IMG/VR virus record: IMGVR_UViG_3300035670_001058
Coordinates: 1-27,334 of that record
Length of the DNA stretch: 27,334 nt
Direction: 5' to 3' (one strand)
Source: a virus
Lineage: Duplodnaviria; Caudoviricetes
The stretch's first letter is position 1. The number at the start of each line of letters is the position of its first letter. The translations under genes were made by a program, and so were the position numbers. This document shows, one piece after another, positions 7,747 to 23,141 of the stretch. The notes beneath the pieces were generated by a model. The model searched no databases and was not told the DNA's origin. It saw nothing but the letters and a program-made list of their open reading frames with translations.

Positions 7747-8560
7747 TATCAGAGCTATTAGGATCTATATCACTATTGATTGTTTTTCCTTCTATTTCTG
7801 TGGAAGTCTCTGTCTTTTTAAATTCATCTAAAAGTCTACCTGTATAACTAAATTCTCCATGATGGGAGATATATTCATCAACTAAAGCATACATTTTAAT
7901 CCCTGCATGTTTACATAATTTACAGAAATAAAAGTCTTCTCCTGTATAAGTTTTATCATCTTTATTCCAATAGGTATCAAAGAAGTTATACATATGCTTT
8001 CTAGTAACTAATTTACCATCAATTAAAGTGTGTTGATTTATTGTAAATTCTGGATATTCTTTTATTAAAGCATCTATAACAGATCGTTTAATTAACATAC
8101 AACCTGCTGGGCCTCTTTCAACTTCTATAAACCCATTTTCTACTTTTACACTAGAAGGATCTGGAACAGACATTGTGTATTGATTACCTAATACTCTAGG
8201 ATCTATATCACAACCTTCTTTTATTCTTTTTTTAATTTTATCAAAATCTAATCCTTTAATAGGATAAGGAACTAAACAAATATCTTTATCGTAGTTAATC
8301 ATTTTTTCAATCATTTTAAAATTAAAAGAAATATCAGAATCTATAAATAACATATGAGTGCAATTAGATTCCATAAATCCAGATACACAAAGTTGTCTTC
8401 CTTGTGTAACTAAACTACTTTTCATAACTTGAAACATTACAGGAATTTTTCTAACAAAACATTCTTTTTGAAATTCTAAACAAGCTTTGAAATAATGAAT
8501 AGATACGTCTGAATGAACAGGTGTTGCTACAAATATACTTATAGGTTGTTTATATCCCAT
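7733..8560 (-). CDS. GT-A fold glycosyltransferase (GT2-like)
   Basis: IFVATP start, THMLFIDSD (DxD), G.AGCMLIKR, GEDFYFC motifs. Confidence 0.8.
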   Translation of the reverse strand: MGYKQPISIFVATPVHSDVSIHYFKACLEFQKECFVRKIPVMFQVMKSSLVTQGRQLCVSGFMESNCTHMLFIDSDISFNFKMIEKMINYDKDICLVPYPIKGLDFDKIKKRIKEGCDIDPRVLGNQYTMSVPDPSSVKVENGFIEVERGPAGCMLIKRSVIDALIKEYPEFTINQHTLIDGKLVTRKHMYNFFDTYWNKDDKTYTGEDFYFCKLCKHAGIKMYALVDEYISHHGEFSYTGRLLDEFKKTETSTEIEGKTINSDIDPNSSDIAKS

Positions 8561-9464
8561 TTAAAAAATTCTCCCAATAAGTCTTTATTACATTCCAATG
8601 ATAAAATTGTCTATAGTATTGTTGTTGAAATTTCATTTTATTTTCATCTACGTTGGATAACATTTCAGGTAGCTGATCTATAACTGCAGCAAATTGTGTA
8701 GCTAACAAAGTTCTATTATTTTGATAAGGAACATATATTGGGAACTCAGCACATGTTTCATATAAAGCACCGAGGTCCGTGATTGCTGCTGCGAGTCCAC
8801 AGGCTAACGATTCCATGGCCGCTAAACAAAAGGTTTCTTCAAATATAGAAGGATGAATATAAGCATCATAAGTATGTAATACTTTCATCAATTCTTTGTG
8901 ATTAATATAACCTTTATAATTAACATTTTTTATTGATTTTGCTTTTTCATATAATGCTACAAACTTATCATCTGTTAGCTTTTTAAAAGCATCTCCATAG
9001 ATTTGTGTACTTGAATAAATATCTAGTTCTACTTTATCTGTTTTAATTTGTTCCATAGCATTAAGTAAAACTTCTAGTCCACGCCAAGGAGTTGAAGTAA
9101 AAACTAATTTTAATTTATCTTTAGGTTTAAAATCTGTCTTTATAATTAAATCATCATCAAATCCGTTTTTAATAACTAAACATAATTCAGTTGGTAAACT
9201 AAAAAAGTATCTAAACTTTTCATACGTCCAATGTGAATTAAATACATAATAATCATATTTACCGTGATTTAATTTATTTTTAAACCAAGGCATAACATTA
9301 GGTTGGTCATAACTATTATGTACCCAAAGAACATTAGGTTTATTAATAAGTAATGGTGTCTTTTCTGGAATGGATGTTGTGATTTGAACTTTATCAAGAA
9401 GTTCTTTTGATACGTACTTATGTAAGTATTCTACTTGGATTTCGGTTCCGCCGTAAGGATTCAT
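8550..9464 (-). CDS. GT-B fold glycosyltransferase (GT4/Glycos_transf_1-like)
   Basis: N-terminal GGTE, STPWRGL, PS.FEETFCLAAME (EX7E), ACG...TDLGAL motifs. Confidence 0.88.
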   Translation of the reverse strand: MNPYGGTEIQVEYLHKYVSKELLDKVQITTSIPEKTPLLINKPNVLWVHNSYDQPNVMPWFKNKLNHGKYDYYVFNSHWTYEKFRYFFSLPTELCLVIKNGFDDDLIIKTDFKPKDKLKLVFTSTPWRGLEVLLNAMEQIKTDKVELDIYSSTQIYGDAFKKLTDDKFVALYEKAKSIKNVNYKGYINHKELMKVLHTYDAYIHPSIFEETFCLAAMESLACGLAAAITDLGALYETCAEFPIYVPYQNNRTLLATQFAAVIDQLPEMLSNVDENKMKFQQQYYRQFYHWNVIKTYWENFLNGI

Positions 9465-13530: not shown

Positions 13531-13559
13531 ATTATACTATTTTTGTCTTAGTGGTGGAA
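13531..13559 (-). promoter_or_regulatory. Possible promoter re-initiating structural genes
   Basis: Perfect TATAAT (13536-13531) immediately after the upstream stop; -35 (TTCCAC at N17) is weak. Confidence 0.35.
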
Positions 13560-14190
13560 TACCAAGTAAAGGTCTTTTATCATATAAATTGGAATCTGCA
13601 AACTGTCCATTTACATGGTTATAATGCAAGAAAACTTGAGCACAAATGTTTCCTGTAAACTCTTCTCGCCAATGTTCTAATTCACAACCTGAATAAACTA
13701 ACATATCACCAGGTTCAAGATCTACTCTTATTCCAGCAGGTGCATTAGGTTTCATAATATTTTTATATTCATCTATTACATTATTACTTCCTGTTGGATC
13801 TATAAATATGGGCCAACTATCTCCACCTAGATTTAATGTTGTAGATATCTCACAAGATGGTCTATCTTTATGTCTTTTCAATATTGAACCTTTTTCATAC
13901 ACACGTGCGTACGAGTATGTGGGAATTAAATTTAAATTAGTTTCTTTTTTCATTATTGGCATAACTCTCATTAATAATGTCTCCATAGCAAAGTCTGCAT
14001 AATGAGAATATACATTTGGAACCTGTTGATCTTTCCACGTTCCGAATAAACTATTTTCAGCAATGATGTTATTACTATACATATAATTAACAGCGTCTCT
14101 CTTTAGAAGAAAATAATTAAATACAAAGTTAGCAAGATCGTATGGAATTGCTTTTTTAATTACTTGATATTTATTCTGTGCGAAACTCAT
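13537..14190 (-). CDS. 2OG-Fe(II) oxygenase (HxD type)
   Basis: L.RHKDRPSCEIS.T, GDMLVYSGC...HWRE, QVFLHY. Confidence 0.85.
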   Translation of the reverse strand: MSFAQNKYQVIKKAIPYDLANFVFNYFLLKRDAVNYMYSNNIIAENSLFGTWKDQQVPNVYSHYADFAMETLLMRVMPIMKKETNLNLIPTYSYARVYEKGSILKRHKDRPSCEISTTLNLGGDSWPIFIDPTGSNNVIDEYKNIMKPNAPAGIRVDLEPGDMLVYSGCELEHWREEFTGNICAQVFLHYNHVNGQFADSNLYDKRPLLGIPPLRQK

Positions 14191-14780
14191 GCTTGCATAC
14201 CTGCTTGTAAAAAATTAAATGATACTGATATTCTTATATCATCAGATTGATTAGGATCAACACAATGATTTAACCATGAAGGAAACATTATAAGTCTTCC
14301 TGCAATTGGTTGATAATGAACTTCTCTCCATAAATAAGATGGTAATTGTCCTTCTTTTCTTTTTGGATGAGTCATGGCTGCAACTGATTTTGGATCTTCA
14401 CATTTTAAATGACCACAGTTTTCTGGAGTTTTAACATAATAAACACCTGACCATAATGAATTAGGATGCATGTGAGGTCTATTATATCCACCTTTATAAT
14501 TGATGTTTGCCCACATATTACCAAGGAATGGTTCGTTATCTAATAACTCTTCTTTGTAAATATGAAATTGTGCTTTAAATAATAAATCAACGAGTTCTAT
14601 ATATTCTGGAAGTTTATGCATATTAGTTTCACTATGCCATCCATTCATATTAGTTTTTTGAACACCTTTATCTCGTTTAGACCATTCAATAATATGATGT
14701 TCTAAATGTTTATTTAATTGTGGAGTTCCAACATCTGCCACATAAATTGGAGTTGCAAAAAATAATTCTCTATTCATCAT
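14187..14780 (-). CDS. 2OG-Fe(II) oxygenase (HxH type, 2OG-FeII_Oxy_5/TIGR02466-like)
   Basis: WANIN..GGYN.PHMHPNS.WSGVYYV, FPSWL.H.V, RISVSFN. Confidence 0.88.
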   Translation of the reverse strand: MMNRELFFATPIYVADVGTPQLNKHLEHHIIEWSKRDKGVQKTNMNGWHSETNMHKLPEYIELVDLLFKAQFHIYKEELLDNEPFLGNMWANINYKGGYNRPHMHPNSLWSGVYYVKTPENCGHLKCEDPKSVAAMTHPKRKEGQLPSYLWREVHYQPIAGRLIMFPSWLNHCVDPNQSDDIRISVSFNFLQAGMQA

Positions 14781-15355
14781 TTAAATGGAGTTCCTCCAAA
14801 CCACATTACAAGTGATTTTCTTGTACCTTTTGTAATTGGTATTACACGATGTCTAATATAACTTGCAAAGAAAATAGCTTGTCCTTGTTTAGGTCTTGCA
14901 ATCTTTCCATCTGACATAAGTTCTAATCCACCACCTTCAAATTCTGATTCATGTGATAATAAACAAGTCATAGATATTTTTCTCACCGGTGGTTCATTTG
15001 CACAATTAACATCTGAATCTATATGCCAATCATAAAATCCTCCTGCTGGGTACTCCGTATACTGTGCGGGTTCCGTTATTTGCATTCCTTCAAATCCAAA
15101 ATGATTACCATTAGTTTGAAGCATAATTCTCTCTAATGTTTTATACATTTCAGGTAATTTATTAAATGGTATCCAGCTAATGTGAGATGTTCTAACCTTT
15201 GTATCTACTACACCACCTTTTCCTCCTCCAACCTGACCACTTTCTTTTGGTTCAGATTGACCTGCTTTAATAATTAATTGACATTGTTCTGGTGTAAATA
15301 ATGGTGAAGTTGTTTCTACAATTAACGACTTCCAACGTGGTTCTGTGATTATCAT
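14777..15355 (-). CDS. Prolyl 4-hydroxylase-like 2OG-Fe(II) oxygenase (2OG-FeII_Oxy_3/PKHD type)
   Basis: YDWHID, RKISM, FEGGGL, F.SY..HRV.PITKG.RKSLV.W. Confidence 0.88.
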   Translation of the reverse strand: MIITEPRWKSLIVETTSPLFTPEQCQLIIKAGQSEPKESGQVGGGKGGVVDTKVRTSHISWIPFNKLPEMYKTLERIMLQTNGNHFGFEGMQITEPAQYTEYPAGGFYDWHIDSDVNCANEPPVRKISMTCLLSHESEFEGGGLELMSDGKIARPKQGQAIFFASYIRHRVIPITKGTRKSLVMWFGGTPFK

Positions 15356-16002
15356 TGTGCTCCTCTGTTAGCTATTGGATCATAAAGAACATCACAATTA
15401 GCTGCTAATGTTCTTCTTGTTTCATTTGTTCCATTGAATGGATAGACGCAATGTCTCATGTCATATGGAAATATATAAAAGTCTCGTAGTTCCATTGGTG
15501 GTTGATAATCTACCTTTGCAAACTGACCATTGGTTGCACCTAGTATTTGTAATCTTCCATTTTGTGGAGCTTGGGCTGCTGAATATTCTACACCATAAGT
15601 ATTTGGTAATTTTAAAATCATCACCGATGATAAACCTGTGAACAAATTGCCCTGGTGTATGTGCACAGGATTAAATTCGTGGGCTTTCATTTCATTAACC
15701 CAGATTGAATTTAAATGAGTTTGATATTTTCTAATATGATTAAATTCTAAATAATGATGAAACATTTCCATGAACCATTGTTTAACATTTAATGGTAAAT
15801 GATCATGTCTTTGCATCTTTGATGTATCTTCTCCATCATAATATATAGAATGTTCATTCATAATCTTACCAACTAATTGTTTATTAGCTGGATATAATTG
15901 ATTAAACTTTTGTTCGTAAATTGAATTAATAGTTGAGAATATATCTAAAGGCGTTTCATAACGCATGACACATTGTCCTAAAAATGTGAAATTAAATTTC
16001 AT
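15352..16002 (-). CDS. 2OG-Fe(II) oxygenase-like protein (HxH type)
   Basis: IWVNEM...EFNPVHIH, LSSVM.LK, IFPY...H.VYPF, RRTLAAN. Confidence 0.78.
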   Translation of the reverse strand: MKFNFTFLGQCVMRYETPLDIFSTINSIYEQKFNQLYPANKQLVGKIMNEHSIYYDGEDTSKMQRHDHLPLNVKQWFMEMFHHYLEFNHIRKYQTHLNSIWVNEMKAHEFNPVHIHQGNLFTGLSSVMILKLPNTYGVEYSAAQAPQNGRLQILGATNGQFAKVDYQPPMELRDFYIFPYDMRHCVYPFNGTNETRRTLAANCDVLYDPIANRGAQ

Positions 16003-16345
16003 TCTTCATTTCCTGTCTTATCTTTGTTGCAGATATTTCTTGAATCTGTTTTGGTAATACGATCTCTTCAATCTTATAACCAACATCTCGACCATAACAA
16101 ATATTAGTTATATTTGCAACTTTGATAACTTCAAATTTACCTACATAATCTTGTAATTTTTCCTCAATTCGTTTCTTAATATCTTCAAATTCAAAAGGAT
16201 TATTATCTGACTTTGGCATGGTTCTAACCATGATTTGAACTTGTCCTGTTCTTTTTAATATCTCTTTAAATAAAGCTAAATGACCATCATGGAATGGCTG
16301 CCATCTGCCTAACATCTGTGCTGTTGGTTTAGAGTAGTCTATCAT
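15992..16345 (-). CDS. Minimal HxGH-family nucleotidyltransferase (NadM/cytidylyltransferase-like; candidate ATP sulfurylase)
   Basis: GRWQPFHDGH, NPF, GRDVGY, ISATKIR; 117 aa; overlaps the APS kinase-like gene. Confidence 0.8.
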   Translation of the reverse strand: MIDYSKPTAQMLGRWQPFHDGHLALFKEILKRTGQVQIMVRTMPKSDNNPFEFEDIKKRIEEKLQDYVGKFEVIKVANITNICYGRDVGYKIEEIVLPKQIQEISATKIRQEMKNEI

Positions 16346-16718
16346 GTATCTCCTTTATTATGTTATCGTAATTAAAATCTTTTATCTCAAAGTCTACTTT
16401 TTTAGGTTTTTCAAATACTTTATTCGTATCTTCAAATCTTCCTTTATCAATTGTATTCATCCAAATCTTCATACCATAGAAAGATCTATAAGATTCAAAT
16501 GGACAAACGAAATCTACAACAACATGATTAACTGCAAGATCACACATCGTCATCATACGATTCGCTTGTCGTTTACGACCATCCTCTGTAAAATCCCAAT
16601 CTTCAAATAACTTTCTAATCTCATCAGCATTGAAGTGTGGTATTTTTTTACCTTCTATTAATTTCTTTGCAAATGTAGTTTTGCCTGATCCTGGTAATCC
16701 AAATATTAATATCTTCAT
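16329..16718 (-). CDS. cysC: Adenylylsulfate (APS) kinase-like P-loop kinase
   Basis: GLPGSGKTT P-loop, NADEIR, DFT..GR.RQ..R, DFVCP, FE.P; matches CysC motif order; adjacent to the sulfotransferase. Confidence 0.72.
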   Translation of the reverse strand: MKILIFGLPGSGKTTFAKKLIEGKKIPHFNADEIRKLFEDWDFTEDGRKRQANRMMTMCDLAVNHVVVDFVCPFESYRSFYGMKIWMNTIDKGRFEDTNKVFEKPKKVDFEIKDFNYDNIIKEIHDRLL

Positions 16719-17530
16719 TAAAATTTTATATGTCCATATGCATCAACAATGCTTTTAGGCAATTGTGATCTATAAGGATTGTCTTCCTTTCTAATCTCTT
16801 CTCTAATCGTATGCATTCTATTTCCAACCACTGTATCGTCGTAACTCATACCATTTATTTGAAACTGTTTCAAGGATTTAAAGTTATGATTAAATCTAGG
16901 TATTTTTAAAAAGTCATATATTTTATTTATTTCAATGTCTGGTTGATTTACTAAATCATCATATTTTAAATAATGACACATGTTAGGATAATTGTAAGAA
17001 TTTTTAATAGCTTCTAAATCTTTTGCAATCGCACCATCTTTATTCATGAGCATCCAAAGTTTTTCCTCAACAGTTTGTTTACCGTATTTATGAACAAAGC
17101 TTGTTGGCTCTCTTTCAAACCATTTAACATAAGATGCAAGAACATCTAAAACATCTCTTAAAATAATAATGCATTTAAATGGTCGTTTGAAATGCTTCTG
17201 CATTAACATAAAATTACCAGGTGTCATGACAGGACCCCTGTCTATAATATAACGTTGTGGCCAGTCTTTATAGTAAGTATCAAAGACGATATCTAATACG
17301 TTATCTAATGATTTATGATCTGGGTAATTTTGAAAGACATCTGTTTCTTTAAGTAAAAACAAATCTTTCATTATTTCTAATGTAATAGAATTAGGTGTAC
17401 AGGCGATATCTGGGTTTTGATTTATAATGGAACCAAATAGAGTATTACCTGATCTTGGTAATGCGACTAAAAAGAATAATTCTTTAGCTGTTTGGTTTTC
17501 CAAAAGTTGGGATTGATTTCTTCTCATCAT
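16718..17530 (-). CDS. PAPS-dependent sulfotransferase
   Basis: 5'-PSB loop LPRSGNTL, 3'-PB motif RDVLDVLAS, YDDLV..P; true start may lie a few codons downstream. Confidence 0.87.
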   Translation of the reverse strand: MMRRNQSQLLENQTAKELFFLVALPRSGNTLFGSIINQNPDIACTPNSITLEIMKDLFLLKETDVFQNYPDHKSLDNVLDIVFDTYYKDWPQRYIIDRGPVMTPGNFMLMQKHFKRPFKCIIILRDVLDVLASYVKWFEREPTSFVHKYGKQTVEEKLWMLMNKDGAIAKDLEAIKNSYNYPNMCHYLKYDDLVNQPDIEINKIYDFLKIPRFNHNFKSLKQFQINGMSYDDTVVGNRMHTIREEIRKEDNPYRSQLPKSIVDAYGHIKF

Positions 17531-18164
17531 GTTTAAGTAGTCCTAATTCTTTCTTAACTCTTTCAATCGTTTGTAATTGTCCAAGAACATTGAATACTTC
17601 AGGTTGAGAAGATCCAGGTGTTAATGTTTCAGCTTTATTCTTCATGATTTGGTGATATGATTCTAATTGATGAGTATTTACATTTTTAGTATCGAATGAT
17701 CCATCATCAAATTCTTTCTTTAAATTAGACCACATATTAATTTCTCTCATTCTATCTCTTGCAACAAGTTCCATATTCGCTTTTGCATAAATCTTTTCAT
17801 CTAAATCTATTTTATAACATTCTAATTTATATTCATCCGTTTCAGTTTCTAATTTCTTTTCTAACCATTTAATCTTTGCATCATTTCTTCTGTAATCAAA
17901 AGATAATGACATTAAATTTTCTAAAAATACGTTCTGTTCTCTAACACATTGCCAGTATTTAGCAGATATTGTTGGATATTTTGCATCTTGTAATACTGAA
18001 ATTCTTGCTTCTGTTTCTGTTCTGAATATTTGTTTTTTTGTCCAAGTATCACGAAGTTCCTCAACCATTCCTTTGAATGCATTGAGATCGTTTGGATCAA
18101 GTAGATTATTTAAGTGAGCTTCTTCTTGCTGTATTAAACTCTTAATATTTCTCTTCTCTGTCAT
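17484..18164 (-). CDS. Hypothetical coiled-coil protein, first gene of the modification cassette
   Basis: 226 aa, charged and helical; FRTETE and KYWQCVRE segments; promoter directly upstream. Confidence 0.75.
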   Translation of the reverse strand: MTEKRNIKSLIQQEEAHLNNLLDPNDLNAFKGMVEELRDTWTKKQIFRTETEARISVLQDAKYPTISAKYWQCVREQNVFLENLMSLSFDYRRNDAKIKWLEKKLETETDEYKLECYKIDLDEKIYAKANMELVARDRMREINMWSNLKKEFDDGSFDTKNVNTHQLESYHQIMKNKAETLTPGSSQPEVFNVLGQLQTIERVKKELGLLKHDEKKSIPTFGKPNS

Positions 18165-18171
18165 TGAGAAG

Positions 18172-18200
18172 GATATAACGATTTATTATGAAGTTGTCAA
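18172..18200 (-). promoter_or_regulatory. Sigma70 promoter for the modification cassette (near-leaderless)
   Basis: Perfect TTGACA (18200-18195, within the last codons of the propeller gene)-N17-TATATC (18177-18172), 7 nt before ATG 18164; no SD. Confidence 0.65.
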
Positions 18201-20024
18201 GGTTGAAGCGGTTATTGTAGTTTGTGGGCCTGACCATTCTTCTGTGGCTGTTAAAACAGTTGGAAACCCACCACCAAATGCTAAACCTACTGTTTGTGTT
18301 CCTACTCCTCCTAACTCACCTCTTCCTGTTGCCATTGGTGGAACAGATGTCCAACCTGTACCATCCCAAACTTCTGTATTAGCACCGCCTCCACCACCAA
18401 ATCCTAACGCAGCGGTTTGTGTTCCACATCCTGCTAAACTACTTCTTGCAGTGTTCATTGCATTAACTGAAGTCCAACTTGTTCCATTCCATGATTCTGT
18501 TGATCCAGTTGGAGATCCTGGTGATGGAACTTGAACTCCACCAAATGCTAATGCAGCTGTTTGAGTACCACAACCTGTTAAACTTTGTCTGGTTGTGTTT
18601 AGTGAATTTGGAGTGTTAGTCCAACTTGTTCCATTCCATGATTCTGTATTAGGTGAAGTTATACTTCCTGTACCTGGAATTCCACCACCAAACGCTAAAG
18701 CAGCTGTTTGAGTTCCTGCTGATCCCATAAGTCCTCTAGCAGTGTTTAAAGAATTAACAGGAGACCAAGACGTTCCATTATAAGATTCTGTATTTGCATA
18801 ATTAGTAGGTGAATTTCTACCTCCAAATCCTAATGCAGCAGTTTGTGTGCCTGCTCCTCTAATTCTATATCTTGCAGTTCCTAAATTTCCTCCTGCTGAC
18901 CAAGTAGCTCCATCATATTCTTCTGTTGCAGTAAGAGCTCCTGCTGGAGGTGCTGATGTGTAACCTCCAAATCCTAATCCTGCAGTTTGAGTTCCAGCAC
19001 CACCTAAATTATATCTAGCCGTCCCCATATTCCCGCCGCTCGCCCAAGCACCCGTGGCTGGGGAAAAAATTGTTGAGTTGTATTCTTCTGTGTTTGCAAT
19101 TGATCCTGTTGCATATCCACCAAAACCTAAAGCTGCTGTTGCTGTTCCTGATTGAGCAGAAGCTAAACCTCCTCTAGCTGTTGCCATAGTAGCTGAAGAT
19201 GTCCAATTTGTTCCATCATATTGTAAAGATGTTGCTATACCTGATCCTGCAAAAACTAAAGCATTTGTTTGTACTCCTGATCCTGAACCAGCTCCTCTTA
19301 CAGCTGGTAAACTTGTACCTGCTGTCCAAGTTGATCCATCATATTCCTCTACGTTTGATACGTCACTTCCACTATTTCCACCAGCTCCTAATGCCGCTGT
19401 TTGAGTTCCTGCAGCTGAAAAACCTTCTCTTGCAGTTATTAAATTTCCACCTGATGTCCAATTAGTTCCATCATATTCTTCAGTCGCATTAGTATGACCA
19501 GAAGGAAGAACATTTCCTCCAAATGCAACACCTGCAGTTAAAATTCCTACGGAATCTCCATTTCTCCTACCAGGAGAAGTCATATTGTTACCAGCTGTCC
19601 AAGTTGAACCATTATATTCTTCAGTTGAAATTAAAAAAGTAGGAGTATTATTATCTCCAGCGGCAGACACAGCAGCTGTTTGTGTTCCAAATCCAAAATT
19701 ACCTAATATTGATGCACTTAAATTTCCTCCTGCTGACCAAGTGTATCCTGAATATTCTTCTGTAGCATTTGTACGAGGATTTGGAGGACTTGGAAATCTA
19801 GAACCACCAAATGCTAAACCTGCTGTTTGAATACCAGCACCACCAAGATTGTATCTAGCAGTACCCATATTTGATCCTGAAGACCACGCTTTAATTTGCA
19901 CTAATGATTTTAATGTACCTGATGTGGAGTTATACCACACCTGTCCCTCGTTGCCTGTGTTGAGTGTTGGGTCTGAACCCAAGTAGTTGACTCTTAATCC
20001 TGCTAGCTCATTGTAGGTCGTCAT
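18186..20024 (-). CDS. Kelch-like double beta-propeller virion protein (12 blades)
   Basis: 12 copies of an approximately 46-aa W..GG...TAR....G.GTQTAAL.FGG...TEEYDG unit; N-terminal SDP...EGQVWYN domain. Confidence 0.85.
   Translation of the reverse strand: MTTYNELAGLRVNYLGSDPTLNTGNEGQVWYNSTSGTLKSLVQIKAWSSGSNMGTARYNLGGAGIQTAGLAFGGSRFPSPPNPRTNATEEYSGYTWSAGGNLSASILGNFGFGTQTAAVSAAGDNNTPTFLISTEEYNGSTWTAGNNMTSPGRRNGDSVGILTAGVAFGGNVLPSGHTNATEEYDGTNWTSGGNLITAREGFSAAGTQTAALGAGGNSGSDVSNVEEYDGSTWTAGTSLPAVRGAGSGSGVQTNALVFAGSGIATSLQYDGTNWTSSATMATARGGLASAQSGTATAALGFGGYATGSIANTEEYNSTIFSPATGAWASGGNMGTARYNLGGAGTQTAGLGFGGYTSAPPAGALTATEEYDGATWSAGGNLGTARYRIRGAGTQTAALGFGGRNSPTNYANTESYNGTSWSPVNSLNTARGLMGSAGTQTAALAFGGGIPGTGSITSPNTESWNGTSWTNTPNSLNTTRQSLTGCGTQTAALAFGGVQVPSPGSPTGSTESWNGTSWTSVNAMNTARSSLAGCGTQTAALGFGGGGGANTEVWDGTGWTSVPPMATGRGELGGVGTQTVGLAFGGGFPTVLTATEEWSGPQTTITASTLTTS
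18471..18647. repeat. Perfect 30-bp direct repeat between adjacent propeller blades
   Basis: agtccaacttgttccattccatgattctgt at 18471-18500 and 18618-18647. Confidence 0.9.
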
Positions 20025-20037
20025 GTGAGTGACCTAC
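20013..20037 (-). promoter_or_regulatory. Hairpin covering upstream stop codon and downstream start codon
   Basis: mRNA GUAGGUC-11 nt-GACCUAC; UAG of the 98-aa gene lies in the 5' arm and AUG of the 612-aa gene in the loop. Confidence 0.5.
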
Positions 20038-20330
20038 GGTAAAGTTATAGCAGTCGGTCTTTGATTGAATCCTGGTCTATTTTTTTGCTCAATTGGTAAA
20101 GCGTCCCAAGCTGCTTGAGCCGCTGCAACTTCTGCATCAACAATTGCTTGTGCTTCTGCTTTAGTTTTTTCAACTCCGTTTTTCTCTGCTAACCATAAAG
20201 CTCCTTTTTCATTATTTCCGATTACCCAAACATCGCCTGGAAATCCTCTTAAGAAAAAGTTTCTTCTGTCTTCTGCAGTAAAAAAACCTTTGCCTGTGTT
20301 AGTTGCTGTACCGTATATAAAAAGTGCCAT
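20034..20330 (-). CDS. Hypothetical protein (98 aa) within the propeller cluster
   Basis: Strong SD (AAGGAG) and its own promoter; Ala-rich C-terminal helix. Confidence 0.8.
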   Translation of the reverse strand: MALFIYGTATNTGKGFFTAEDRRNFFLRGFPGDVWVIGNNEKGALWLAEKNGVEKTKAEAQAIVDAEVAAAQAAWDALPIEQKNRPGFNQRPTAITLP

Positions 20331-20351
20331 ATTTATGCTCCTTGGTTAGTT

Positions 20352-20380
20352 ATTATAAGTCAATTTATTCATAATGTAAA
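20352..20380 (-). promoter_or_regulatory. Near-consensus sigma70 promoter
   Basis: TTTACA (20380-20375)-N17-TATAAT (20357-20352), followed by AAGGAG SD and ATG 20330. Confidence 0.75.
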
Positions 20381-22189
20381 CTAACTTGTAGTTATTGTTT
20401 TTGTATTAGTTGCTGTAGTTTCACCAGTAAATTCTTCTGTAGCAGTACCTTGAGGACCTGAAAAACTTCCTCCTCCACCTACTAATGCTGCAGAAACAGT
20501 ACCTTGTCCTGCACTAGCTGCAGATGATCTTGCTACTGCCATAGGAGGTCTAGTAAAAAAAACAGTTCCATTAAATTCTTGAGTAAAACCAGTTGTAGCT
20601 GGTGTATCTCCACCAGAACACAAAGCCGCTGTTTGAGTACCAGATGCTGCTTGTGCCGCTTGTGCAGTTACTAAATTTGGAGATGAACTATAACTTGTAC
20701 CATCATATGTATTGCTTGTTGCTACAGGTGATGTTCCATTATATCCACCAAAAATAAGTGCTGCTGTTTGAGTTCCTGATATTCCAATATTTTGTATATT
20801 ATTTGGATAATTTGTAGGTGTTGTTGTCCAATTTGTTCCATCATATTCTAAAGTTTGATTGGTTATTCCAGGAACTATATTTCCTCCTACTGCTAAAGCC
20901 GCTGTTTGTGATCCACAACCACCTAATTCAGAACAACTTGCAGGTAAAGTATTAACATTACTCCAAGTAGCTCCATCATATTCTTCTGTTACGTCTGTTT
21001 GAGGATATCCACCACCAAATCTTAAAGCTGCGGTTTGAGTTCCTGCACCATATAAAGCTCTTTTAGCTGTATTTAAATTTCCTCCACCAGACCAACTAGA
21101 TCCATTGTATTCTTCTGTAGCATTAGATAAATTATTTGGAGGGGAAATGAATCCACCAAATGCAAGTCCTGCCGTTTGTGTACCTGCTCCACCTACTCCA
21201 GAATATCTAGCAGTTGACATATTCCCGCCACTCGCCCACGCTGCGGCTGTGATGATACTAGATGAGAAATTGTATTCTTCTGTGACTGCTGTATTAGATG
21301 GAGTACCTCCACCAAAACCTAATGCTGAAGTTTGTGTTCCAGATCCACCTAAACTAATTCTTGCAGTTGCCATAGGAGAAACTGATGTCCATGCGGATCC
21401 ATTATATTGTTCTGTTGCTCCTGTAACTGTTGGTGTTCCTCCACCAAATGCTAAAGCCGCTGTTTGAGTTCCTGCCCCTGCTAAATATCTTCTTGCAGTG
21501 TTTAAACTACCTCCTGCTGTCCAAGTTGAACCATCATATTCTTCTGTGTTTGCAAATATTGTTGGAAAACTTGCACCTCCAAATCCAAGACCTGCAGTTT
21601 GTGTTCCTGTTCCACCTATATCACGTCTTGCAGTATTTAAAGATCCTCCTGCAGTCCAAGCTGAACCATCGTATTCTTCTGTGTCAGCAACAACAACTGT
21701 TGTATTACCACCAAATGCTAATCCCGCTGTTTGAATTCCTGCTCCTCCTAAACTACGTCTTGTAGTTCCCATATTTCCACCTGGCCCCCAACTTGTACCA
21801 TTATATTCTTCGGTTGCGTTAGTATTACCTGTTCCATCTATATAACCTCCAAAACCTAGTGCAGAAGTTTGTATTCCACAACCTGCTAATAATCTTCTTG
21901 CTGTTGTCATGTTTCCACCTATTGCCCAACCTGATCCATTATATTCTTCTGTTGCATTTGAAACTGGAAAATCTCCACCGAAAGCAAGTCCTGCTGTTTG
22001 AATTCCACAACTTCCAAATTGAGCTCTTGCAGTAATCATAGGACTACCAGAACTCCAAGTTCCTGAAGATAAAACACTCTTAAACGTCCCCGAAGTTGTA
22101 TTATACCAAACTTGTCCTTCAGCATCGGCCGTTGGATCTGAACTGTAGTTCTTTACGTATTTACCAAAAATTTCTTTGTATGTTGTCAT
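20381..22189 (-). CDS. Kelch-like double beta-propeller virion protein (12 blades)
   Basis: 12 G(T/I)QTA-type repeats; same N-terminal domain and C-terminal TTS as its paralogues. Confidence 0.85.
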   Translation of the reverse strand: MTTYKEIFGKYVKNYSSDPTADAEGQVWYNTTSGTFKSVLSSGTWSSGSPMITARAQFGSCGIQTAGLAFGGDFPVSNATEEYNGSGWAIGGNMTTARRLLAGCGIQTSALGFGGYIDGTGNTNATEEYNGTSWGPGGNMGTTRRSLGGAGIQTAGLAFGGNTTVVVADTEEYDGSAWTAGGSLNTARRDIGGTGTQTAGLGFGGASFPTIFANTEEYDGSTWTAGGSLNTARRYLAGAGTQTAALAFGGGTPTVTGATEQYNGSAWTSVSPMATARISLGGSGTQTSALGFGGGTPSNTAVTEEYNFSSSIITAAAWASGGNMSTARYSGVGGAGTQTAGLAFGGFISPPNNLSNATEEYNGSSWSGGGNLNTAKRALYGAGTQTAALRFGGGYPQTDVTEEYDGATWSNVNTLPASCSELGGCGSQTAALAVGGNIVPGITNQTLEYDGTNWTTTPTNYPNNIQNIGISGTQTAALIFGGYNGTSPVATSNTYDGTSYSSSPNLVTAQAAQAASGTQTAALCSGGDTPATTGFTQEFNGTVFFTRPPMAVARSSAASAGQGTVSAALVGGGGSFSGPQGTATEEFTGETTATNTKTITTS

Positions 22190-22190
22190 G

Positions 22191-23141
22191 TTATGAGGTT
22201 GTTATTTTTTGTACTGCGAATGTTGGGTCTGTAAATTCTTCTGTGGCTCCTGTTATAGAAGGTGTAGCTCCTCCAAATGCTAAAGCTAATGTTTGAGTCC
22301 CTGCTCCTGCAAGAGCTTGTCTTGCTGTTGCCATATTTGAACTAGTTGTCCAAGAAGTTCCATCATATTTTTCTGTTGCTGCAGATAAACCTCCTCTATC
22401 ACCACCAAAAGTTAAACCCGCTGTTTGTGTACCCGCTGAACCTGATTGAACTGCTCCTGAATTTAAATTTCCTCCTGCTGTCCAACTTGTTCCATTATAT
22501 TCTTCTGTGGCTGTTGGAGATGGGGTTCCACCAATAGCAAGTCCTGCAGTTTGTGTGCCTGTACCTGATAAAGCACGCCTTGCTGTTCCTAAATTTCCTC
22601 CAGGCCCCCAACTTGTTCCATCATATTCTTCAGTTGCTGATGAAGGTGTAACTCCTGGTGTCATTCCGCCAAAAGCCAAACCTGCAGTTTGAGTTCCACA
22701 ACCTGATAACTGCATCCTAGCTGTTCCTAAATTTCCACCAGGTGACCAAGTAGATCCATCATATTCTTCTGTAATATTTCTGTATGGATTACCTCCAAAT
22801 GCTAAACCTGCTGTTTGTGTTCCTGCTCCACCTAATTGTGATCTTGCAGTTCCCATAGTTCCCCCAGGACCCCAAGTTGAACCATTATATTCTTCGGTTG
22901 CTCCTGATTCAGAAGGTGTGCTACCACCAAATCCTAAAGCCGCTGTTTGAGTTCCTGCTCCTGCTAAATTATTTCTAGCTGTAGACATACTTCCACCTGA
23001 TGCCCACGCTCCACCAATATTTTTATAACCTTTTAAAACTCCAATAGTATTATTATACCAAATTTGTCCTTCTTCTGGATTTGTTGGATCTGATGATACT
23101 GATTGTATCGCCGTTCCTCGTATCTCTTTAAAGGTTGTCAT
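22191..23141 (-). CDS. Kelch-like single beta-propeller virion protein (6 blades)
   Basis: 6 GTQT repeats; N-terminal SDP...EGQIWYN; GGAGG SD. Confidence 0.85.
   Translation of the reverse strand: MTTFKEIRGTAIQSVSSDPTNPEEGQIWYNNTIGVLKGYKNIGGAWASGGSMSTARNNLAGAGTQTAALGFGGSTPSESGATEEYNGSTWGPGGTMGTARSQLGGAGTQTAGLAFGGNPYRNITEEYDGSTWSPGGNLGTARMQLSGCGTQTAGLAFGGMTPGVTPSSATEEYDGTSWGPGGNLGTARRALSGTGTQTAGLAIGGTPSPTATEEYNGTSWTAGGNLNSGAVQSGSAGTQTAGLTFGGDRGGLSAATEKYDGTSWTTSSNMATARQALAGAGTQTLALAFGGATPSITGATEEFTDPTFAVQKITTS

Follow-up and report, generated by a model that had tools for sequence, protein, structure and literature searches.

A 117-residue NadM-like nucleotidyltransferase as a candidate miniature ATP sulfurylase in a viral sulfotransferase locus

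A virus that carries a sulfotransferase gene raises the question of how the activated sulfate spent by that enzyme would be made. The virus record IMGVR_UViG_3300035670_001058 (Duplodnaviria; Caudoviricetes), which was analysed over its entire 27,334 nt (hereafter, the window; a fragment, 44% complete), contains three overlapping genes, all on the minus strand as the original prediction had described. These encode a sulfotransferase of 270 aa of the type dependent on 3'-phosphoadenosine 5'-phosphosulfate (PAPS) (16718..17530; PF00685, PF13469), a 129-aa P-loop kinase resembling adenosine 5'-phosphosulfate (APS) kinase (16329..16718; PF01583, family profile, and Foldseek of a natural fusion), and a minimal 117-aa HIGH/HxGH nucleotidyltransferase (NT; 15992..16345; PF01467, phrog_10255, fold and context). 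The sulfotransferase and kinase genes overlap by 1 nt at a TAATG junction, the kinase and NT genes by 17 nt, and the NT gene and the next gene, for a 2-oxoglutarate (2OG) oxygenase, by 11 nt; AAGGAG lies 4 nt ahead of the NT start.

The NT is quite probably a stand-alone miniature ATP sulfurylase (ATP + sulfate <-> APS + pyrophosphate, PPi) from the NadM branch. This reading is adopted because the gene contexts of the NT, which include AprBA, CysH/CysI and sulfotransferases, share one metabolite, APS; joining of ATP and sulfate is the simplest activity because a HIGH adenylyltransferase occurs in all three contexts, mostly where no known ATP sulfurylase was found. The family would probably represent a new enzyme type for a known reaction within a known superfamily. 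The wider proposal, favoured less firmly, is that of a third ATP sulfurylase family of ~115 residues derived from NadM, serving as partner of AprBA in SAR11, in sulfate assimilation in a lineage with cysIH and without CysD, and in phages as part of a 250-residue PAPS synthase for sulfating their own products.

In the phage, the NT would join ATP and sulfate to give APS and PPi, and the trimmed kinase would phosphorylate APS to PAPS, which, by trapping APS, would pull the unfavourable first step forward; the sulfotransferase would then spend PAPS on an acceptor. A bacterial NT acting after AprBA might run backwards, producing ATP and sulfate from APS and PPi, and one encoded with CysH/CysI might run forwards to feed these enzymes. 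The earlier proposal that this small protein would make APS gains support from gene context, namely a sat slot, a cysIH operon, fusions and co-occurrence with aprA.

The kinase and its pairing with the NT in viruses

PHROG 10255 is a single family of 230 positions that spans both small genes, with the kinase at 2-121 and the NT at 124-229. The NT has 4426 relatives of similar length, and the kinase is kept upstream of it in 80/80 viral loci; for these two reasons the locus is not a product of chance. The viral loci are the best 80 of 197 confirmed matches, with an NT 83-98% identical to that of the window, and are close kin including near-duplicates. A sulfotransferase open reading frame (ORF) is present in 67/80, in four unrelated clusters (55, 8, 3 and 1 members; the cluster of three recognised by motif alone); of the 13 loci without it, 10 have <1.2 kb of upstream sequence. 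A conserved kinase-NT pair with a swapped sulfotransferase is as expected of a donor-supply unit, and the association of NT homologues with kinase and sulfotransferase genes that had been anticipated is thus observed.

Kinase-NT fusions, which had also been foreseen, were found: kinase and NT form one chain in 114/120 of the best longer relatives and in 51/56 representatives of at least 200 aa, and the fusion is intact in the cultured phages DLP_6, Sano and Bacata. Some still longer 'fusions' (NT with enoyl-CoA hydratase and others) look like assembly chimeras and were rejected as biology. In Sano, gp33, two genes upstream of the fusion, gives a weak Sulfotransfer_4 match (E 4e-4, below cut-off); the unannotated gene in that position in Sano and Bacata (L082:6576-7163, L083:4579-5157) has a PRSRS motif.

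The kinase scores 24.6 bits against PF01583 (cut-off 21.1), with generic P-loop models scoring equally, and 22.5 bits against TIGR00455, far below the NCBIfam cut-off of 138.7. A profile built from 19 kinase relatives is more specific in its matches, as APS kinases or domains resembling them make up 24 of the 26 best PDB rows, and D32, R35, F43, R48, F70 and P73, invariant in the 19 rows, align to conserved APS kinase positions. The fold evidence comes from a fused relative, the natural kinase-NT fusion P0121, rather than from the kinase of the window itself: the predicted fold of P0121 has a pLDDT of 96.3, and its Foldseek matches place PAPSS and APS kinases first, with E-values only few-fold better than that of shikimate kinase. 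Like CysC (PF01583; 2yvu, 2ofw, 4bzq), the window kinase has a P-loop and alignable D, R, F, R and FxxP positions; unlike CysC, it has 129 aa, ~50 residues fewer than solved APS kinases, and the stretch after strand 4, which we take to be the lid of APS kinase, is largely missing, so that a full-length lid region is lacking.

The arrangement resembles bifunctional PAPS synthases (human PAPSS1, 1x6v; Aquifex, 2gks), in which an APS kinase and an adenylyltransferase are joined or adjacent and supply sulfotransferases; in the natural fusion the kinase is the first half, and the best match is PAPSS1. It differs in size (~250 aa versus 550-630 aa), in having a second domain that is not Sat, and in being split here into two genes.

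Gene neighbourhoods and distribution in bacteria

Bacterial loci were taken as the best 80 of 509 matches, from a genome scan that covered 5 of 64 parts; of the neighbouring genes, 1156 ORFs were clustered, and 100, 103 and 19 representatives, rather than each ORF, were scanned. An estimate of ~8100 stretches was set aside, since the pattern behind it fits NadM too and 5 of 64 parts had been covered. The NT relatives with sulfur-gene contexts are 50-69% identical to the NT of the window. Seven of these 80 loci contain aprBA. In three kinase-less loci (L100, L131, L132), an NT 61-67% identical to that of the window directly precedes aprM-like-aprB-aprA, where the aprM-like gene, named by position, encodes a membrane protein for which four helices are predicted. 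In the sat-aprMBA operon described for A. vinosum, sat occupies that same place (PMC3779200). In another locus (L093), an NT of 69% identity ends the operon chelatase-cysG-cysI-cysH-DUF2061-kinase-NT. The gene order cysQ-kinase-NT is seen in L143, and cysQ is also near the NT in L145-147; a sulfotransferase gene lies no more than three genes from the NT in L097, L130, L149, L154 and L155, and TauE and YeiH genes are near some bacterial NTs.

The presence of these genes in whole families points in the same direction. In the family of G001 (121 sampled Pelagibacteraceae genomes), NT was found in 79, aprA in 71, Sat in 6 and CysD in 7. NT is present in 69/71 aprA carriers versus 10/50 genomes without aprA, and 65/121 have aprA and NT with neither Sat nor CysD found. 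One of the two aprA carriers without NT has CysD, and NT occurs in 0/7 CysD carriers. CysDN (TIGR02039) is like the NT in the proposed reaction; it is an unrelated, two-subunit, GTP-coupled enzyme. NT lies <4 kb upstream of aprA on the same strand in 24 of the 69 genomes with both; in the other 45 the two are not closely linked, so that joint loss from partial assemblies does not suffice to explain the co-occurrence. Of the 10 NT genomes without aprA, six have the NT in a long frame (258-465 aa, five of them fusion-sized), and aprA carriers have none of this kind. In the family of G005 (41 genomes), NT and aprA are found in the same 26, linked and convergent, with Sat in two. In the family of G002 (11 genomes), CysI is found in 11, NT in 10, CysD in 0 and Sat in 1, and the order cysI-cysH-DUF2061-kinase-NT stands on one contig in 9/10.

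These contexts bear on a rival in which the NT acts on APS without being self-sufficient, either only consuming it, with phosphate or by hydrolysis, or requiring a further subunit from the host. Consumption of APS still fits the oxidative (apr) operons; moreover, no more than three strands are clear in the monomer model, in which segment 77-98 is extended, so that the site may need a partner, and the sulfate ligands of Sat are missing from the NT. This explanation is nevertheless unlikely, since APS synthesis is called for both where the NT closes a cysI-cysH operon, in the family with CysD in 0/11 and Sat in 1/11, and where it is joined to APS kinase next to sulfotransferases.

The wide occurrence of the NT also bears on the suggestion that the virus would make PAPS independently of its host, which is weakened by the same NT in 79/121 sampled Pelagibacteraceae genomes; the argument behind it, that SAR11 lacks assimilatory sulfate reduction, also mixes sulfate reduction with sulfate activation.

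Other features of the bacterial loci may be recorded here. DUF2061, possibly a sulfur-related membrane protein, is encoded between cysH and the kinase in 9/10 loci of the G002 family (L093:7232-7498, L221-L229), and follows the kinase-NT fusion in L153. That family (G002 and G165-G174) differs from Pelagibacter proper in having cysI in 11/11, joined in the one example read by cysH and siroheme genes. The Sat genes of the six Sat-bearing Pelagibacteraceae genomes are in L195-L200, one of them adjoining a CysC-like ORF. In some Pelagibacteraceae (L088, L091, L111), a gene for an autotransporter-domain protein of ~750-780 aa separates kinase and NT, and in the ORF maps of two Bacteroidota bins (L156, L160) the NT apparently has no adjoining kinase or sulfur gene.

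Sequence and fold of the NT, and what weighs against the proposal

The NT matches PF01467 (E 1.6e-6) and gave no match to PF01747 (Sat) in the Pfam scan. All motifs quoted in the original prediction are present in its translation: GRWQPFHDGH at aa 13-22 (16280..16309), of NadM type rather than Sat QxRNxxHxxH; NPF at 49-51; GRDVGY at 85-90 (16076..16093); and ISATKIR at 104-110 (16016..16036), which resembles Sat SGTxxR and the matching NadM motif. Conservation was counted over 107 aligned relatives. The HxxH of Sat is present (H19 in 105/107, H22 in 107/107), and S105, T107 and R110 of the SGTxxR-type motif are conserved, which is common to NadM and hence not diagnostic. The suggested echo of the Sat GRDHAG loop is partial: G85 (107/107) and R86 (106/107) are conserved and G89 is near invariant, D87 is variable (71/107) and the His is absent. 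Arg41 (16223..16225) is basic in 105/107, its position being Ser in three phage NadM proteins; R41 and R86, as family-wide basic residues, could be anion holders. In Sat, sulfate is bound via Gln199, Arg201 and Ala299-NH (PMC3779200).

Judged by its sequence, the NT is a member of neither Sat nor NadM. It is not a Sat member because it is closest to NadM by sequence and fold and lacks QxRN. It shares with Sat (PF01747; 1v47 from T. thermophilus, 4dnx from A. vinosum) a HIGH fold that spans the catalytic domain (1v47, Z 9.0), the order of HxxH, GR(D) and S(G/A)TxxR, and, in its relatives, the same operon slot, but it has 117 aa versus ~340-400 aa, short of a multi-domain Sat, and is without flanking domains and Zn site. 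With NadM (1f9a from M. jannaschii, 2qjt from Francisella), the nearest by sequence and one of the nearest by fold, it shares the GRxQPFHxGH and NPF motifs and the HIGH fold (1f9a: Z 11.2, rmsd 2.6, 108 aligned, 28% identity); it differs in being shorter, in lacking the mid-domain helix region and a Nudix domain, in its conserved R41 and R86, and in having sulfur genes rather than NAD genes as neighbours.

A NAD salvage pair like NadR, with a small-molecule kinase and an adenylyltransferase for nicotinamide mononucleotide (NMN) or nicotinic acid mononucleotide (NaMN), would account for the database names, as the NT is often called NadM. In addition, phage NadR joins a HIGH domain to a P-loop kinase (PMC9503650), and Sano has a NADAR gene ahead of the fusion. 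The NT scores, however, far under the curated NCBIfam cut-offs for NadM (37.2 of 397, 32.3 of 127 and 28.5 of 181 bits), and in a rough alignment with three phage NadM proteins ~50 residues are absent from it, including a Trp-bearing helix. This Trp of the NadM mid-domain helix has a role in nicotinamide stacking. The kinase partner matches APS kinases by profile and fold, and 5/5 genomes tested have a NadD-like gene of their own besides, in three of them above cut-off. Apart from the Sano NADAR, no NAD salvage gene was found among the neighbours scanned, nor NadV in the 44% fragment, whereas phage NadM is described as always accompanied by NadV (PMC9503650). An NAD salvage function is therefore very unlikely.

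The AlphaFold model of the NT (pLDDT 95.2) has three clear strands and a conserved extended segment at 77-98; its generic HIGH fold, as modelled, leaves function undecided. The NT is close in size and fold to small cytidylyltransferases (5x3d, Z 8.6; 2b7l, Z 7.8), only 'cytidyltransferase' clusters were matched in ESM Atlas, and the window and some of the loci have glycosyltransferase genes close by, so that the pair might instead activate another acceptor, such as a sugar, polyol or phosphonate, for glycosylation of virion or surface, as TarD, HldC and Fom1 do. Such a role would leave the sat slot, the cysIH operon, cysQ and the 69/71 aprA overlap unexplained, and is highly improbable.

Several observations weigh against an ATP sulfurylase activity. 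GRxQ replaces the QxRN of Sat in 105-106/107 rows, and NMN adenylyltransferases are the best NCBIfam, PDB-sequence and Foldseek matches; the top PDB sequence match, 6nyr, was rejected as a repeat artefact. Closer structural likeness to Sat was not borne out, as the NT fold is not nearer Sat than NadM or PPAT: in the VIA comparison, PPAT/NadM reach Z 11.1-11.2, the best Sat 9.0 (rmsd 3.1, 115 aligned), and Sats other than that of Thermus 6.0-6.9. No Sat is among the Foldseek rows listed, an absence that is uninformative as VIA lists several; compared by profile with an alignment of six Sat sequences, the NT reached 26% probability, likewise uninformative with so small an alignment. Among the viral loci, L019, L020 and L069 have at least 4 kb of upstream sequence in which a sulfotransferase was not found, nor was one found in the whole genome of DLP_6 with a model that also missed Sano and Bacata. 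About 45/80 bacterial loci, all from marine Pelagibacteraceae, have kinase and NT in a betaine/dimethylsulfoniopropionate (DMSP) catabolic region, where neither apr nor sulfotransferase genes are close to them; the genomes with this pair carry aprA elsewhere. Mutual exclusion of NT and Sat was tested in the 121 genomes and not found, as 5/6 Sat carriers have NT. In the family of G005, the linked genes drop out together, and throughout, the genomes counted are kin, many of them incomplete, and the counts are not independent. Fisher values for the 121 genomes therefore exaggerate the association and are given no weight.

In a tree of NTs (95 rows, 118 columns), nine viral rows of this lineage group weakly (82/98, an open fork), differing bacterial gene contexts fall on separate branches, and the donor cannot be named.

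The phage setting, possible acceptors and wider meaning

Nearly all long ORFs of the window are on the minus strand, and genes for tail adaptor, structural and ejection proteins also occur (Pfam, PHROG). The 648-aa structural protein has as best cultured relatives HTVC023P (57%) and HTVC027P (53%), and the exonuclease HTVC023P (65%) and HTVC027P (43%); an HTVC023P-type affiliation thus rests on the best match for two genes of a fragment. From these genes, the host is likely of SAR11 type. The pelagiphages HTVC023P and HTVC027P were not among the matches when 50,697 phage records were searched with the NT.

The sulfotransferase matches PF00685 (E 8.5e-13, 48.7/22 bits) and PF13469 (E 1.6e-12, 48.6/27 bits) and is 26-29% identical to cyanophage sulfotransferases. 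Its start is probably the TTG at 17503 rather than 17530, because a homologue begins MESQT. The trio sits between repeat-rich tail-like genes and four tandem oxygenase-like genes just downstream of the NT (13537..16002, minus strand; three 2OG-Fe(II) oxygenases and one member of PHROG 2954, labelled ferrochelatase; Pfam, PHROG). On the other side, a 226-aa conserved viral protein (17484..18164, minus strand) overlaps the sulfotransferase ORF from directly upstream; it is present in 36/80 viral loci, mostly those with repeat proteins, forms viral-only clusters with viral relatives only and no family, and ESM Atlas returned nothing for it. It is followed by three Gly/Thr-rich repeat proteins (phrog_27227, PHROG; 18186-20024, 20381-22189 and 22191-23141) with a 98-aa ORF (together 18186..23141, minus strand). 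The repeat proteins have no convincing Pfam match, are probably tail or receptor-binding parts, and are possible acceptors of the modifying enzymes. The minus strand also encodes an S-adenosylmethionine decarboxylase (236-697; Pfam) and a GT4 glycosyltransferase (8550-9464; Pfam). Promoter and terminator scans gave signal no better than chance.

In related phages, the same slot contains carbamoyltransferases, GT8, Asp/Asn hydroxylase and O-methyltransferases (L057:5829-7376, L059:1703-3140, L027:6569-7234, L025:4475-5017, L073:1693-2529), and a GIY-YIG/NUMOD3 homing endonuclease gene is inserted among the oxygenase genes in L070 (2569-3147) and six more loci. On gene content, this slot among tail genes is a variable tailoring cassette. 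The sulfated target is tentatively sought on tail proteins of the virion, as a hydroxyl or a glycan; these proteins are weakly favoured because of the position among late and tail genes, the oxygenases and the GT4 glycosyltransferase; the host surface is a possible but doubtful target, a small molecule a rather unlikely one, and DNA an improbable one. The role of phage sulfotransferases has been called unclear (PMC10580990).

Viral cysC has been published in a report that names Xylella phage Sano (bioRxiv 10.1101/2021.01.05.425418; see also PMC10914622); the parts of these two reports that were available make no mention of the NT half, and the available main text of PMC9599517 has no mention of these genes. 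A literature search, in which most subscription papers were not covered, found no paper proposing this enzyme. For Pelagibacter HTCC1062, sat and cysDN are reported absent, and cysC is scored present in 5/7 strains (PMC5069961). Pelagibacter is described as having aprBA without sat or cysDN, AprBA being read for that reason as sulfite detoxification, and the fate of APS is left open in the available text of these papers (PMC5069961, PMC12636525).

If the NT is an ATP sulfurylase, viral 'cysC' would be half of a PAPS supply for sulfation, and not an aid to sulfate assimilation. Sulfur-pathway scoring would also change in thousands of genomes in which the gene is called NadM or cytidylyltransferase. 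In Pelagibacter, the miniature enzyme would close the APS gap left by aprBA, and SAR11 cells would gain ATP from the sulfite released in organosulfur breakdown.

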